A DNA stretch of 14,239 nt from Candidatus Helarchaeota ASGARD archaeon Hel_GB_B. Its GTDB lineage: Archaea; Asgardarchaeota; Lokiarchaeia; Helarchaeales; HEL-GB-B. This document shows, piece after piece, positions 7,295 to 13,795 of the stretch. The stretch spans positions 1 to 14,239 of the forward strand of contig SUPR01000089.1 of NCBI GenBank assembly GCA_005191425.1. Direction: 5' to 3'. The translations under genes and the position numbers were made by a program. How positions within the stretch are numbered: the first letter of the stretch is position 1; every line of letters starts with the position of its first letter. The notes under the pieces are model-generated. The model saw only the letters and a list, made by a program, of their open reading frames with translations. It ran no database searches and had not been told where the DNA came from.

Positions 7295-8557
7295 TTGCTA
7301 AATATATTGTTAATAAACCCAAATGATATGAAACACCCACCTGTAATTCCAATTGGCTTAGAATATTTAAAAACCTATCTCATGAAAGACGGCTATTCTG
7401 TGAAAATTCTTGATTTATGTTTTGAAACTCGTCCACTGAAAAAATTGCAGAATATTTTACAAGAAAATACCTATGATATCGCAGGGATTACAATCAGGAA
7501 TATAGATTTGAGCTCATATTATAGAAATAAGTTTTATTTACCCAGAATTAAAAAAATTGTAGAAATAATAAAAAATTACGGTATTCCAGTTATATTAGGG
7601 GGAGCTGGATTTACTGCTATGCCCGAGGAAATTTTAAGTTATTTAAGAGCTGATTATGGAATTGTAGGTCCAGGAGAAAAAGCTTTTACAGATTTTTTAG
7701 ACAAATGGAAAAAAAATAAACTAGAAAAAAATATATTAAATGGCTGGCAATTTAACCCGGATTATGATTTAATACATTATCGTGGAAAAGATGTCGATTA
7801 TAAAAAATACATTTCAGATGGGGGTATAGTAGGGTTTGAAACTCATAAAGGATGTTCCGGTTTGTGCCCATATTGTATAGAAGCAAAGAACCCACTCCAT
7901 TTTAAAAAAATACCCAATATAATTGAAGAATTAAAGTTTTTAATAACGAATGGTTTTGACCATTTTCATCTATGTGATTCTGAATTTAATGACGATTTGG
8001 CTTATTCTATAAAATTTTGTGAGAAATTAATAGAAGCAAGGTTAAAATTGAAATGGACATTGTATATGAAACCATCACCTTATAATGAACATTTATTTCG
8101 TTTATTACATGATTCAAATGCCTATCTAATAACATTATCAGTTGATAGCTATGAAAAATTTCATAAATTAAATAATTATTCTTATCAAGATCTTGAAAAC
8201 ATTATAAATTATTGTAAAAAATATAACATACAATTAGATATTGATTTATTATGTGGTTATCCAGGTGAACCAAAAGAATCAATAATTAAAATGATAAAAT
8301 TCTTTAAAGAAACGCGACCAAATAATGTCGGGATCACTTTTTATTACCGAATTTATAATCATACACAACTTGCAAATATTATCAAAAACAATTTTAAATT
8401 TCAAAAAAGATTAACAAGAAAACTTCAAGATCCCGAGGATTTTTTGGAGCCAATTTTTTATTCAAATTACGATATTAAATTTTTTAAAAAATTAATTGAT
8501 AAAGACAAAATATTCAGGATTTCAGGGCTTAAACCAGGTGTGAATTATCAATTATAA
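7295..8557 (+). CDS. Cobalamin-binding radical SAM enzyme (class B methylase), TsrM-like
   Basis: N-terminal B12-binding domain (LLINPN..HPP..P.GL, ILDLCF, GITIRNID, PVILGGAGF..MP, YGIVGPGEK). CxxxCxxC at C187/C191/C194 (7853-7876), then HLCDSEFN, YMKPSPYNE and LLCGYPGE. TTG start. Confidence 0.92.
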   Translation: MLNILLINPNDMKHPPVIPIGLEYLKTYLMKDGYSVKILDLCFETRPLKKLQNILQENTYDIAGITIRNIDLSSYYRNKFYLPRIKKIVEIIKNYGIPVILGGAGFTAMPEEILSYLRADYGIVGPGEKAFTDFLDKWKKNKLEKNILNGWQFNPDYDLIHYRGKDVDYKKYISDGGIVGFETHKGCSGLCPYCIEAKNPLHFKKIPNIIEELKFLITNGFDHFHLCDSEFNDDLAYSIKFCEKLIEARLKLKWTLYMKPSPYNEHLFRLLHDSNAYLITLSVDSYEKFHKLNNYSYQDLENIINYCKKYNIQLDIDLLCGYPGEPKESIIKMIKFFKETRPNNVGITFYYRIYNHTQLANIIKNNFKFQKRLTRKLQDPEDFLEPIFYSNYDIKFFKKLIDKDKIFRISGLKPGVNYQL

Positions 8558-9560: not shown

Positions 9561-10667
9561 TTATAATTCTTCTATTTCTTGTAGTTTTTTATTGATAACT
9601 TTTAATGAATGCTCATATAAATATTTTCCTAAATCATGTCTAAAAAGGCTATCTGCAATTGGAGTTATTTCTTTTTTTATAGGTATCAATAAAGAATTGA
9701 ATATTTCACAAAAAATACTCTTCAATTTGTCCGTGAAATTAATACTATAATTATAGATTGGGGTTAATTTAAACGGATTATGAGCATTATTTTTGAAAAA
9801 CAAAATATTCTCAGCGCCAGCCATCCAAGAAGGGCCAAAAAATTGTTCTTTATTAAAATCAATTATAAAGAGGTATTTGTTTTTTAAGATGAACTCTTTA
9901 AATGATTCTATTCCATCTAAGATTATATTTAAAATTTCATTTCCAATTTCTTTAACAGTTCTTTTAGGTATTAACTCAGTCAATTGCTTCAAAATAATAA
10001 ATCCAAACAAATTTTTAAGACAATTTATGGAATAAAGTTTACCGTCCTTATTTTCATCGACAATTTTTTCGAGTCTGGACCTTAAATTACAATGTCTCTC
10101 ATAGAAATTTTCATAAACAGATTGGGATATATATTTATTGAGCAATTCTCTTTTTATCTTTGGAATTTCGTTAAATTTTGTTAACGATGTAAACTCGCTT
10201 GTCATTGATTCTTGATAAATACTTATGTTTAAATCAAGATTTTTAATCCTACTATTAATAAGCTCTAAAGCTTGACCTAAGTCCAAATTTCTGAAACTAC
10301 TTGGATAAATTTTTTCCTGAAATAAATTAGATAAATTATTGGTAAATTCGCTGGATTTTAAGAGTACCCAATCAAAGAAAATAGTTTTAAACTTATGAGG
10401 AGAAATTAAATTATAGCTATTTTTCTCAACATTTTTATTAATTAACCCATTTAGATATAGGATTCTTAATACTTTTGAAGCTTTCATTTTTGTTATGTTT
10501 AAAACTTTAGATAATATACGGTTATCTATAATGTTATAATTATCAAAATTACCATTTAAAACCTCAAAAATAAAACGAGATACCTCATCATAATATTGAA
10601 TAGAATCCTTTTTTGCTTTTAAAAGATCCATAATAATATTAAGCTTTTGAATTTTCTCGGGGTCCAT
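9561..10667 (-). CDS. TrmB-like winged-helix transcriptional regulator, paralog B
   Basis: HTH 'NRILSKVLNITKMKASKVLRILYLNGLI', wing 'NSYNLISP', a long dimerisation-type helix and an alpha/beta C-terminal region. Colinear with the neighbouring 362-aa protein. The CDS is certain; the TrmB-like call is moderate. Confidence 0.7.
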   Translation of the reverse strand: MDPEKIQKLNIIMDLLKAKKDSIQYYDEVSRFIFEVLNGNFDNYNIIDNRILSKVLNITKMKASKVLRILYLNGLINKNVEKNSYNLISPHKFKTIFFDWVLLKSSEFTNNLSNLFQEKIYPSSFRNLDLGQALELINSRIKNLDLNISIYQESMTSEFTSLTKFNEIPKIKRELLNKYISQSVYENFYERHCNLRSRLEKIVDENKDGKLYSINCLKNLFGFIILKQLTELIPKRTVKEIGNEILNIILDGIESFKEFILKNKYLFIIDFNKEQFFGPSWMAGAENILFFKNNAHNPFKLTPIYNYSINFTDKLKSIFCEIFNSLLIPIKKEITPIADSLFRHDLGKYLYEHSLKVINKKLQEIEEL

Positions 10668-10718: not shown

Positions 10719-11807
10719 TTATTGTTCTTCAATTTCCGAAATTTTATTTGAAATAGTTCTTAAACAGTGATTGTACAATTTCTCTCCTAAATCTTTTTTA
10801 ACAATTATTTCGGACAAATTATCATAAATAGAATATTTAATAAGTAGGTTATTAAAAAATTTATTAAAAATCCTGACCATATTATCACAATAACTATTAC
10901 CAGATGTAATATGTAATTCCATAAGGTCGCTTTCAGAGGTGCTACTATAATACATACGAAATACATAGGGCGGTAAAATAGAAATAGGGCCATTAAAACA
11001 AGTACTATCGAAATCTAATAAGACCATTAATTCATTTTCTAAGAAATAATCTTTAAATTCTATGATAATATTTTTAAATCGTTCTAAATAAGCAATTAAA
11101 ATATGGGACAGGGTTTGCTTTGTATAGCCTTTTGAGATTAAGGTATCGATCATTCTTTGATAATCACGCTTTAGAAATAAAACATAGAAAAATTTTCCTT
11201 CAGAATTAGAGTTATGAATTTTTTCCAGTCTAGATTTTATTATTTGAAATCTTTTATATCTATTTTTATAGTTAATTTTGAACATAATTGAATTATAAGC
11301 CTTTTTTTCAAAATTGGGTAATTTAGACCATTCAATTGGAGTTGTTAAAGCTGATACTGGTGATTCTTGGTAAACATTTGTATTTAAATTAAGAAATTTA
11401 AGTTTATTATTGAAAAATGCCAAACCATCAAGTGGATTGAGTTTAATATAAAAATTTGGGTATATATTTTTTCCGATTATTGATTTTATTGTATTAGCAG
11501 CTGATTTCATGTGTGTCTCAATTGAATTTATAAAAATATTCTCAAATTCATTCTGGTCAATAAGATAATATAGATTTTTATTAGGAGAACCTTTTATGAG
11601 ATGAAATTTTTTTAATTTTCTTAAAATAGAGCTTGCTTTTACTTTAGAAATGTTTAGTGTCCTGGCAATTATTTCATCATTTAAGAATTTGTAATCATTA
11701 TACTCGCCATCTAAATATTTAGTAATAAAGGAACAAATATCTTGATAATTACCAATTCTTAACATCTTCAAAAAAGTGTAAACCGCAGTTTTCTTCTTTT
11801 TTTCCAT
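10719..11807 (-). CDS. TrmB-like winged-helix transcriptional regulator, paralog A
   Basis: HTH 'DEIIARTLNISKVKASSILRKLKKFHLI', wing 'NLYYLID' and a following long helix. Shares blocks with paralog B over its full length. Confidence 0.7.
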   Translation of the reverse strand: MEKKKKTAVYTFLKMLRIGNYQDICSFITKYLDGEYNDYKFLNDEIIARTLNISKVKASSILRKLKKFHLIKGSPNKNLYYLIDQNEFENIFINSIETHMKSAANTIKSIIGKNIYPNFYIKLNPLDGLAFFNNKLKFLNLNTNVYQESPVSALTTPIEWSKLPNFEKKAYNSIMFKINYKNRYKRFQIIKSRLEKIHNSNSEGKFFYVLFLKRDYQRMIDTLISKGYTKQTLSHILIAYLERFKNIIIEFKDYFLENELMVLLDFDSTCFNGPISILPPYVFRMYYSSTSESDLMELHITSGNSYCDNMVRIFNKFFNNLLIKYSIYDNLSEIIVKKDLGEKLYNHCLRTISNKISEIEEQ

Positions 11808-12390: not shown

Positions 12391-12451
12391 AAATTTAAAA
12401 AAAACCTAAAAAACCGTTATTAACATAAATGACAAAAAATTGGGAAGAATT

Positions 12452-13795
12452 ATGGAAAATGAAATTTTGTTTAAAACAACTCTTTTATTTTGGAGATTAT
12501 ATGAAACTTATTTAAGCTATTCTAATGATGAAATGCTTAAAGTTCTCCAAAAAAGCAAATATAAACTCTACGACAAATATTTTTTTGTAAATAATAAAGG
12601 TGAAAAAATCCCTTTAAAATGGATAGCCACTACAGGAAAGTTTTTTGTCCCTCATTGTTTTGAATTAGAAGTCCTAGAATTTAAATGTCGAGACCACGAA
12701 TCAGAAATTTATGGAAAAATACAAATTGATTGTCATATATTTCCTGAAGGGGTATTATTATTACAATCTAAATTGGATTTTGAAAATTTCAATTCAGTAA
12801 ATCAACTCATTACAGCTTCAATACCAACAAATATAATTTTATCAAATGGTAAAGATATGGCACAAGAACTTGACGACTTAGCAGATGATATTATTAATTA
12901 TTTACAATCTAAAATTAATAGGAAAAAGAAAATTTTAGGTGAGAAACCCAAACCATGGCACCACAATTGGGTCTGGTGGGAATCTAAACCAAAAGTTCCG
13001 ATAAATGAATTTGATATTAATGGCAAACATTTTAAATATGCGTTAGGGATGTGTACTCGTTCCGATAAGTGGAATGTTTTAAATCCAGAAAATTACGTCA
13101 CCATTATAGAAGACATTTTTAATTTAAGTCCATATTCAGGTAATTGCGTCTATCTAACACATCCAGGTAATTGTATTATACCCAGTAAAGATTTCTTAGA
13201 CCCAAAATCTATTAAAAATACTATTGTTGATGTAATTTTTGCTGCAGAAATAGGTAATGTCCAGAGATATTTGATATTAAACCATTTACAAGATATTAAT
13301 TTTAAGTCTCTCGAAATTCAGGAATTATTATATAAATATTCTCAAGATAAATTAAAAACTAAAGAACTTATTAACAAACTAGAAGAAACTGAGCAAATGT
13401 TAAATGAGATAGTCCTTGAAATTAATAGAAACTTACAAATTACAAGGACACCAAGATTGATTTTTACAAGCGTTTTTAAAACTAAGTTGATGAAACAGAT
13501 GATACACGTATTACATGGAGACCTGTTTTTGAATAGCCTAGAACTAATTATTGACAAAATGAAGGATGCAATTGACAGACAGAGAAATATAATTACAATG
13601 AAAGTTAATGCAGAAGAAAATAGCTTTTTAAGAAACCTTCAAATCGTATTTATTATTGGCCTAATTGCTCAGATGGTAACATTGTTCTATATAGATACTA
13701 CCACTGGTTTTAATCTTGAGGGAGGTGCCTTTTTCATTGTTATTTCAATAATTCTCTCAATATTAATATTATACGTATTAAGGCGCTTTAAATGA
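12452..13795 (+). CDS. CorA-like architecture membrane protein (soluble alpha/beta domain, long helices, two C-terminal TM helices)
   Basis: The ORF track starts at TTG 12440; ATG 12452 has GGGAAG upstream and is preferred. Heptad-like helices (LQDINFKSLEIQELL...KLEETEQMLNEIVLEI; LELIIDKMKDAIDRQRNIITMK) run into TM1 'LQIVFIIGLIAQMVTLFYI' and TM2 'GGAFFIVISIILSILILYVL', ending RRFK. There is no canonical GMN motif. Confidence 0.6.
   Translation: MENEILFKTTLLFWRLYETYLSYSNDEMLKVLQKSKYKLYDKYFFVNNKGEKIPLKWIATTGKFFVPHCFELEVLEFKCRDHESEIYGKIQIDCHIFPEGVLLLQSKLDFENFNSVNQLITASIPTNIILSNGKDMAQELDDLADDIINYLQSKINRKKKILGEKPKPWHHNWVWWESKPKVPINEFDINGKHFKYALGMCTRSDKWNVLNPENYVTIIEDIFNLSPYSGNCVYLTHPGNCIIPSKDFLDPKSIKNTIVDVIFAAEIGNVQRYLILNHLQDINFKSLEIQELLYKYSQDKLKTKELINKLEETEQMLNEIVLEINRNLQITRTPRLIFTSVFKTKLMKQMIHVLHGDLFLNSLELIIDKMKDAIDRQRNIITMKVNAEENSFLRNLQIVFIIGLIAQMVTLFYIDTTTGFNLEGGAFFIVISIILSILILYVLRRFK

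Follow-up and report, generated by a model that had tools for sequence, protein, structure and literature searches.

A compact sister lineage of the methylase TsrM, found in an Asgard archaeon and other anaerobes, bears the TsrM residue signature

The window analyzed here is a stretch of 14,239 nucleotides (contig SUPR01000089.1) from the Asgard archaeon Candidatus Helarchaeota archaeon Hel_GB_B. It carries a gene at positions 7295–8557 for a 420-aa protein with a B12-binding domain and a radical S-adenosylmethionine (SAM) domain. We find that this protein belongs to a compact, widely scattered lineage that, judged from sequence, appears to be a new sister group of TsrM bearing the TsrM residue signature. 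To our knowledge, TsrM, a tryptophan 2-C-methyltransferase, is the sole member of the very large cobalamin-dependent radical-SAM class shown to act without radicals, and it is regarded as an oddity of antibiotic biosynthesis. Our trees place it inside a far larger clade, which is marked by a glutamate (76 of the 130 aligned nearest representatives) and a five-part residue signature. This clade includes a compact stand-alone form of the gene, present in Asgard archaea, Nitrospirota, and other anaerobes, outside natural-product clusters.

The gene and its product

The gene is complete. According to the open reading frame (ORF) list and its translation, it runs on the plus strand from a TTG start codon to a stop codon at 8555–8557. 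This TTG is the earliest possible start past the in-frame stop upstream, and homologs share the same start point. The source is an Asgard metagenome-assembled genome (MAG) of 3.5 Mb, 93.7% complete, and the window itself is AT-rich (~27% G+C). A database record holds a protein identical to the query, and more than 100 orthologs of ~420 aa (50–63% identity) occur in MAGs named Hel-, Loki-, Thor-, Hermod-, Hod-, Odin-, or Promethearchaeota. Thus, the gene is real and under selection.

The protein resembles TsrM in sequence, profile, and predicted fold. In a phmmer search against all chains of the PDB, the sole protein matched was TsrM of K. setae (6WTE/6WTF; E 3.3e-34). A profile of the short clade to which the query belongs matched TsrM with 241 bits (E 1.6e-70), compared with 64 bits for the runner-up PDB entry. 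An AlphaFold2 model built from 26 Asgard sequences (mean pLDDT, the model's per-residue confidence score, of 89) likewise retrieved TsrM as the top Foldseek match (E 2.7e-29, TM 0.83), with CysS second (3e-15). VIA-align superposed the model on TsrM with Z 34.5 and a root-mean-square deviation of 2.8 Å over 417 of 420 residues, followed by AprD4 (Z 26) and OxsB (Z 25); the predicted fold also matches MgmA. The original prediction, made from the DNA alone, of a TsrM-like cobalamin-binding protein is therefore borne out on all three counts. The motif pairs that it listed (LLINPN, ILDLCF, GITIRNID, GGAGF, YGIVGPGEK, GG...GCxxxCxxCxE, H..DSEFN, and Y..PSP) are all found in the alignment with the K. 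setae protein.

In both proteins, a radical-SAM barrel follows a B12 Rossmann domain, an order that, with the CX3CX2C triad, places the query among the cobalamin-binding radical SAM enzymes (class B / class 1 fold). In the query, the cobalamin-binding Rossmann domain spans residues 17–134 (7343–7696; Pfam PF02310, E 7e-17) and aligns to TsrM residues 5–135, while the radical-SAM core domain spans residues 183–336 (7841–8302; Pfam PF04055, E 5.8e-12). The shared elements extend to the G-x-T-x-R motif, the CX3CX2C-x-E motif, the H..D-S-E-F-N motif, the tyrosine pair Y257/Y308, the ribose, GXIXGXXE, and beta-6 motifs, and a C-terminal Asn-Tyr. Structure-based identity is ~24%, and the query has 420 residues against 575 in TsrM, 155 fewer, in keeping with its earlier description as much shorter. 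Its inter-domain linker is ~38 residues shorter, and only 60 residues follow the radical-SAM core, compared with ~155 in TsrM. Some 95 residues of the C-terminal cap are gone, with the Asn-Tyr motif alone kept. In TsrM, the C-terminal domain closes over the substrate (PMC9204698). In its predicted structure, then, the query looks like a trimmed TsrM.

Residues of the cofactor environment

The residues that surround the cofactors of TsrM have counterparts in the query. All features below lie on the plus strand, with TsrM equivalences taken from alignment and SAM-motif names from PMC9204698. The residue predicted to lie beneath the cobalt is R68, the last position of G64-x-T66-x-R68 (7484–7498). 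This "downstream Cbl-binding motif" aligns to G65-x-T67-x-R69 of TsrM. The R68 codon, at 7496–7498 as had been noted, reads AGG, and the residue is invariant across the 26 Asgard sequences. So are the three cysteines of C187-x3-C191-x2-C194-x-E196 (7853–7882), which comprises the [4Fe-4S] Cys triad and a clade-specific acidic residue and aligns to C227/C231/C234 and E236 of TsrM. The equivalent of the GGE motif is F-H225-L-C-D228-S229-E230-F-N232 (7964–7990), aligned to H268 and D271-S272-E273. Within it, E230 (codon 7982–7984, in agreement with the translation) aligns to Glu273 and is the predicted counterpart of the TsrM glutamate that, from the GGE-motif position, ligates the unique iron (PMC9204698). 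E230 is invariant throughout the short clade. Counted in the phmmer alignment, the pairs are R68 with Arg69, E230 with Glu273, Y257 with Tyr308, E196 with Glu236, and H225 with His268, so that the equivalence of R68 and E230 to Arg69 and Glu273, suggested at the outset, agrees with the HMMER alignment.

Y257 (8063–8065) is the counterpart of TsrM Y308. The SAM-binding motifs are also present. D284 (8144–8146) is the ribose-motif counterpart of D335. The GXIXGXXE SAM-binding motif reads L319-C-G321-Y-P-G-E325 (8249–8269; L379...E385 in TsrM), with G321 and E325 invariant in the Asgard alignment. R352 (8348–8350), which is invariant too, is the beta-6 motif counterpart of R412.

A short C-terminal motif completes the resemblance. 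N417-Y418 (8543–8548), in the conserved tail "GVNYQ," is invariant in 29 short-clade sequences, and the segment that holds it (residues 412–420) has a pLDDT below 50. An hhalign comparison pairs the Asn-Tyr of the query's clade with "YNYN" of longer relatives, and HMMER pairs this "YNYN" with "DNNYADN" of TsrM (N528-Y529). On these alignments, N417-Y418 probably corresponds to N527-N528-Y529 of TsrM, on a mobile loop that contacts the substrate. The C-terminal loop of TsrM shifts 16 Å onto the substrate (PMC9204698), and the legend of Figure 6 in that paper names "Asn257 and Tyr259." The K. setae protein has Glu at 257 and Leu at 259; Asn and Tyr occur at 527 and 529. We suspect that the published numbers transpose the digits of 527 and 529.

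Phylogenetic placement

The query belongs neither to the TsrM family nor to the lipid-linked family TIGR04072. It scores 133.9 bits against the TsrM hidden Markov model (HMM; TIGR04428, cut-off 500) and 188.1 bits against TIGR04072 (lipid biosynthesis B12/radical SAM, cut-off 360), which is nonetheless its top curated HMM; the BzaD HMM gives 87 bits. To place it, we used relatives from a HMMER search of 1.84 billion cluster representatives, which returned 229 at E <= 1e-30. The alignment held 130 near-full-length proteins (122 listed 50%-identity representatives and eight Asgard orthologs) together with seven B12-dependent radical-SAM (B12-rSAM) paralogs from the source genome.

The lower-face arginine marks the entire subgroup and is not specific to TsrM, because 128 of the 130 relatives carry it, the lipid family included. 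The aligned paralogs have T, S, N, M, or L instead. The source genome encodes 11 further B12-rSAM paralogs of about 420–486 aa, on contigs C126, C22, C106, C28, C176, C116, C133, C97, and C130 (two pairs share a contig), and all 11 are without the lower-face Arg. Position 230, by comparison, divides the relatives: 76 of the 130 rows have Glu, and nearly all the rest have Val, Ile, Thr, or Leu. To call these two residues the hallmarks of non-radical chemistry, as was done at the outset, was too strong, since the Arg extends to the lipid family and the Glu is also found in the radical enzyme OxsB.

Four other features co-vary with Glu 230, and TsrM shares them all. Position 196 is Glu or Asp in all 76 Glu-clade rows, compared with Tyr in 40 of the 54 others. 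H225 occurs in 61/76 rows versus 7/54, Y257 in 73/76 versus 22/54, and the C-terminal Asn-Tyr in ~60/76 versus none of the 54.

The Glu-bearing proteins form a single clade. In trees built without a TsrM ortholog, this clade received a FastTree support of 95 and a support of 97 in the SH-aLRT branch test (IQ-TREE, LG+C20); after motif columns were dropped, its support was 93. A search limited to longer proteins recovered a genuine TsrM ortholog, P0279 (621 bits against TIGR04428). With P0279 included (IQ-TREE, LG+C20), the Glu clade is again monophyletic (SH-aLRT 96). TsrM, on a long branch, is nested within a "long" subclade (~470–500 aa), and the query's "short" subclade (~420 aa) is monophyletic (support 97). 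Glu 230 thus defines a clade of TsrM, a tryptophanase-fused relative, and the short clade, the last being sister to the lineage that holds the other two. Query and genuine ortholog thus share the same Glu-bearing clade. Two of the outcomes that the original prediction had named as counting against it could be checked by computation, a placement far from TsrM and a failure of R68 and E230 to align with Arg69 and Glu273, and neither was observed.

The grouping of the short clade with TsrM comes from the trees and the shared signature, not from raw scores. In single-sequence comparisons with TsrM, the query scores 122 bits, the TIGR04072 protein P0190 scores 137, and the long-clade protein P0163 scores 214. 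The corresponding profile scores are 241 bits for the short clade, 267 for the clade with Val or Ile at position 230 (V/I clade), and 385 for the long clade.

The V/I clade is the TIGR04072 family, with 27 of its 42 members matching that HMM at E <= 1e-100. Like the query, these proteins (ladderane-cluster type, e.g., Kuste2803) have the Cys triad, R352, the R-N-x-D motif of the lower face, and the D-S-x-F-N frame. They differ at position 230 (V/I), at 196 (Y), and at 225, where most have F or Y, and the C-terminal Asn-Tyr is missing from them. The query, with D-S-E-F-N and E196, lies outside their signature of D-S-[V/I]-F-N plus a Tyr two positions past the third Cys, and in the other clade (SH-aLRT 96–97). 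Lipid modification had been offered as an alternative role on the grounds that a related group with RNID and DSxFN motifs is linked to lipid biosynthesis. Such a group does exist, as TIGR04072, and the same differences at positions 230 and 196 and at the C terminus weaken the lipid reading for the query. The archaeal lipid B12-rSAMs GrsA/B, Gmm, Cgm/Pgm, and Ted, compared by class description only, belong to the same broad class and have archaeal hosts. The B12-rSAM paralogs in the query's own genome (about 460–480 aa), which are probably of lipid type, match it at E 1e-15 or weaker.

The long Glu-clade proteins are the sister group of the short clade. They share its signature residues (profile-profile E 3e-109 over 425 columns), but are 50–80 residues longer and mostly have Asp at position 196. 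One of them, P0276 of Paraburkholderia monticola (L101:8001-10964), is a 987-aa fusion of a long Glu-clade B12-rSAM with a tryptophanase/tyrosine phenol-lyase (NF009709, 637 bits). Its neighbors are an HPPD-like gene, an amino-acid permease, an aminotransferase, and an AsnC regulator; by this domain and neighbor content, it may be an aromatic amino-acid methylation or cleavage enzyme. The fusion and its neighbors, as Rosetta-stone-type evidence, tie the wider Glu clade to aromatic amino-acid chemistry. Long-form genes also occur in the source genome's order, where four genomes (G002, G004, G005, and G006; loci L097–L100) each have a Glu-clade gene for a protein of 481–493 aa, with TsrM-HMM matches of ~275 bits in total. 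The gene adjoins msrA in two of these loci and CCG-domain (HdrD-like) genes in two. Among the genomes tested, G002 has the long form, and the short form was not found in it. None of the long-clade contexts (tryptophanase fusion, HPPD-like gene, aminotransferase, MsrA) was seen for the short clade.

The short clade appears to be new to the literature as well. Searches on TsrM-like and TsrM-homolog families returned only reviews, none of which describes it, and a look-up in the ESM Atlas gave B12-rSAM clusters with generic names alone, mostly from Nitrospirota.

Candidate chemistry

We propose that the query might perform a polar, TsrM-like methylation of an electron-rich substrate. This is the reading that we favor over the alternatives, although we see its chances as evenly balanced. 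Under this proposal, SAM would methylate cob(I)alamin, serving as a methyl donor only. The resulting methylcobalamin, pentacoordinate and destabilized by R68 beneath it, would be attacked by a nucleophilic atom of the substrate, and the methyl group would move as a cation equivalent. The target atom would most plausibly be an sp2 carbon in a small aromatic or heteroaromatic molecule that is rich in electrons. E230, seated on the unique iron, would keep SAM off the cluster so that no 5'-deoxyadenosyl radical forms. In TsrM, the Arg is required for the second methyl transfer, to Trp (PMC8992657). A lower face made hydrophilic by Arg tends to go with a lack of radical methylation, and the radical methylases with solved structures have a hydrophobic residue under the cobalt (PMC12931638). 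By analogy, the tryptophanase fusion in the sister clade lends indirect support to an aromatic substrate. The way the substrate is handled probably differs in some respects from the way TsrM handles Trp, given the truncated cap and the shorter linker. The gene stands alone among unrelated genes.

Several points weigh against a polar mechanism. According to reviews, neither the Arg nor the Glu alone proves non-radical chemistry (PMC8992657, PMC12931638). The Arg is found throughout the subgroup, the lipid-linked TIGR04072 proteins among them. OxsB, a radical enzyme, likewise has a Glu in its GGE position (PMC8992657), and a fourth cluster ligand provided by the protein is found in several B12-rSAMs, where it is linked to switching between nucleophilic and radical modes (PMC12931638). 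The canonical SAM-binding motifs of the query all appear intact, so that SAM could still be cleaved reductively. With its C-terminal domain truncated, the query is unlikely to form a Trp pocket like that of TsrM, and in raw score TIGR04072 proteins are at least as close to TsrM as the short clade is. Gene neighborhoods yield no consistent pathway. The chemistry suggested for the short clade is read throughout from sequence and fold.

Taxonomic distribution and genomic context

Short-form genes are patchily distributed within Asgard archaea and extend well beyond them. Of 301 genomes sampled from the phylum, 27 encode an ortholog (E <= 1e-90), and 24 of these 27 belong to a single family. The gene is thus accessory in Asgard, and the idea that it is a core Asgard gene was rejected. 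One Asgard ortholog (G210:C28:276655-277902) has a single in-frame TAA and could be a pseudogene or an assembly error. Sister sequences of ~40% identity come from Nitrospirota/Thermodesulfovibrionales, Bacteroidales, Latescibacterota, Gemmatimonadales, and others. The label "archaeal-type" therefore did not hold, given the presence of the family in Nitrospirota and other anaerobic bacteria and its patchiness in Asgard.

The immediate neighbors of the gene do not recur. Upstream on the same strand, across a 74-bp gap, lies a gene for a Gfo/Idh/MocA oxidoreductase; downstream, a convergent gene encodes a metallo-beta-lactamase (MBL)-fold hydrolase. Neither neighbor recurs in related loci. We clustered and annotated the neighbors in 80 related genome loci and also read six metagenome or assembly contexts. 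No neighbor is common across lineages in these 80 loci and six contexts, and a conserved operon partner was accordingly rejected. Pfam and NCBIfam scans of the window took in every other ORF that reaches 80 aa, except two short ones that lie antisense within larger ORFs. No thiopeptide genes were found among the window ORFs tested, as the original prediction had it, and no thiopeptide (quinaldic acid) genes in the 80 related loci. Pfam and NCBIfam annotation likewise detected no lipid biosynthesis genes in the window or in related loci.

Two associations are confined to particular lineages. In Nitrospirota/Thermodesulfovibrionales, the ortholog adjoins a gene for a ~261-aa protein resembling methyl-tetrahydrofolate (methyl-THF):corrinoid methyltransferase (MeTr), at 11 genome loci and on the metagenome contig L089. 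In all but one of the 12 cases, this MeTr-like gene immediately precedes the ortholog on the same strand, often with a gap of 1–18 bp: at ten of the 11 genome loci (L055, L056, L062, L066–L068, L071, L073, L074, and L079; downstream at L075) and at L089. Its product scores 126 bits against NF005719, below the cut-off, and is thus not a canonical AcsE. In 16 Asgard loci (L010, L011, L013–L015, L017, L018, L021, L022, L024, L025, L033, L035, L039, L042, and L058), a gene for a flavodoxin-like flavin mononucleotide (FMN) reductase (PF03358, 184 aa) lies near the ortholog, upstream and on the opposite strand. It is directly adjacent and divergent in 13 of the 16, and two or three genes away in L011, L017, and L058. 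The reductase could be an electron donor. Neither the FMN reductase nor the MeTr-like gene is in the window, and the source genome has only paralogs of the reductase, at ~40% identity.

Other contexts are mostly housekeeping, with genes for UvrB, MgsA, MurC-like proteins, TrmO, Obg, LplA, ABC transporters, and a glycoside hydrolase. At L090:1-7290 (GCA_020047475.1), the short-clade relative P0123 lies beside two B12-rSAM genes and three class-I SAM methyltransferase genes, in what looks like a methylation-rich biosynthetic cluster.

Competing explanations

The query could instead be an ordinary radical B12-rSAM, an explanation that we consider possible if doubtful. It would then be either a methylase or a non-methylating rearrangement or cyclization enzyme, as proposed for the ladderane type of TIGR04072. 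SAM would be cleaved to a 5'-deoxyadenosyl radical, the target would be an unactivated carbon, perhaps in a lipid, and E230 would be only the usual glutamate of the GGE motif or a resting-state ligand. The rank of TIGR04072 as top curated HMM (188 bits) and the intact Cys triad and SAM-binding motifs are consistent with this, as are the Glu of OxsB at the same position, the protein ligation of the cluster in several enzymes (PMC8992657, PMC12931638), and the many B12-rSAMs that archaea employ on lipids (bioRxiv 10.1101/2025.10.20.683597). That HMM score, however, is far under the cut-off of 360, and the TIGR04072 proteins branch apart from the query, with V/I at 230 and Y at 196 and without the C-terminal Asn-Tyr. 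The genome's probable lipid-type paralogs are distant (E 1e-15 or weaker) and lack the Arg. The radical methylases of solved structure have a hydrophobic residue under cobalt (PMC12931638). The lack of lipid genes in the window and related loci is a further point against this explanation. At the opposite extreme, the query might be a true functional TsrM, that is, a minimal form of the free L-tryptophan 2-C-methyltransferase. The shared cofactor-environment signature, the C-terminal Asn-Tyr loop motif, and membership of the same clade speak for it, yet we regard it as highly improbable. With TIGR04428 it reaches 134 bits where 500 are required, structure-based identity is ~24%, and ~95 residues of the substrate cap and ~38 of the linker are missing. 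The gene has no thiopeptide or quinaldic-acid context, and TsrM is nested in the other (long) subclade.

A third explanation draws on the gene neighborhoods and seems to us improbable. Here the protein would be a corrinoid methyl carrier fed by methyl-THF. Its cobalamin would be loaded by a MeTr-like partner that binds pterin, and the chief role of SAM and the [4Fe-4S] cluster would be to reactivate it reductively, following the logic of MetH or CFeSP on the scaffold of a radical-SAM protein. It would account for the MeTr-like gene beside the ortholog in 11 Nitrospirota loci and L089 and for the flavodoxin-like FMN reductase in 16 Asgard loci, and the role of the cluster is unclear in TsrM itself (PMC12931638). 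The MeTr link is, however, limited to one bacterial lineage and may reflect inherited synteny. The Nitrospirota MeTr-like query found no homolog in the source genome, which encodes other Pterin_bind proteins elsewhere, and neither partner gene is in the window. Nor are carriers of the ortholog depleted in MetE-type proteins. The broader idea that the short clade, in Asgard archaea and anaerobic bacteria, independently re-invented the logic of MetH and CFeSP, with MeTr-like loading, flavodoxin-like electrons, and reactivation by SAM and [4Fe-4S], strikes us as a slim chance. The source genome, at 93.7% completeness, has no match to PF01717 (MetE-type) or PF02574 (the homocysteine-binding domain of MetH), and thus no methionine synthase recognized by these models. 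A methionine-synthase role was considered and is unsupported: across the 301 genomes, 18 of the 27 carriers have a weak PF01717 match, in a pattern that follows genera.

Implications

If the signature marks polar chemistry, non-radical "radical SAM" methylases would be widespread in the general metabolism of anaerobes. Should the proposal of a polar mechanism be true, the 420-aa form would also offer an attractive minimal system for studying the switch between polar and radical modes. If the signature does not mark polar chemistry, its residues need another explanation, which would itself be useful for function prediction in this class. These questions are directly testable; they are of moderate interest, mainly to radical-SAM enzymologists.

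Other genes in the window

Some ORFs of the window are unrelated to the TsrM-like gene. Two neighboring minus-strand ORFs, at 9561–10667 and 10719–11807, encode proteins of 368 and 362 aa that have no Pfam or NCBIfam match. Beside this pair, the ORF at 12440–13795 gives a weak match to DUF2207_C.

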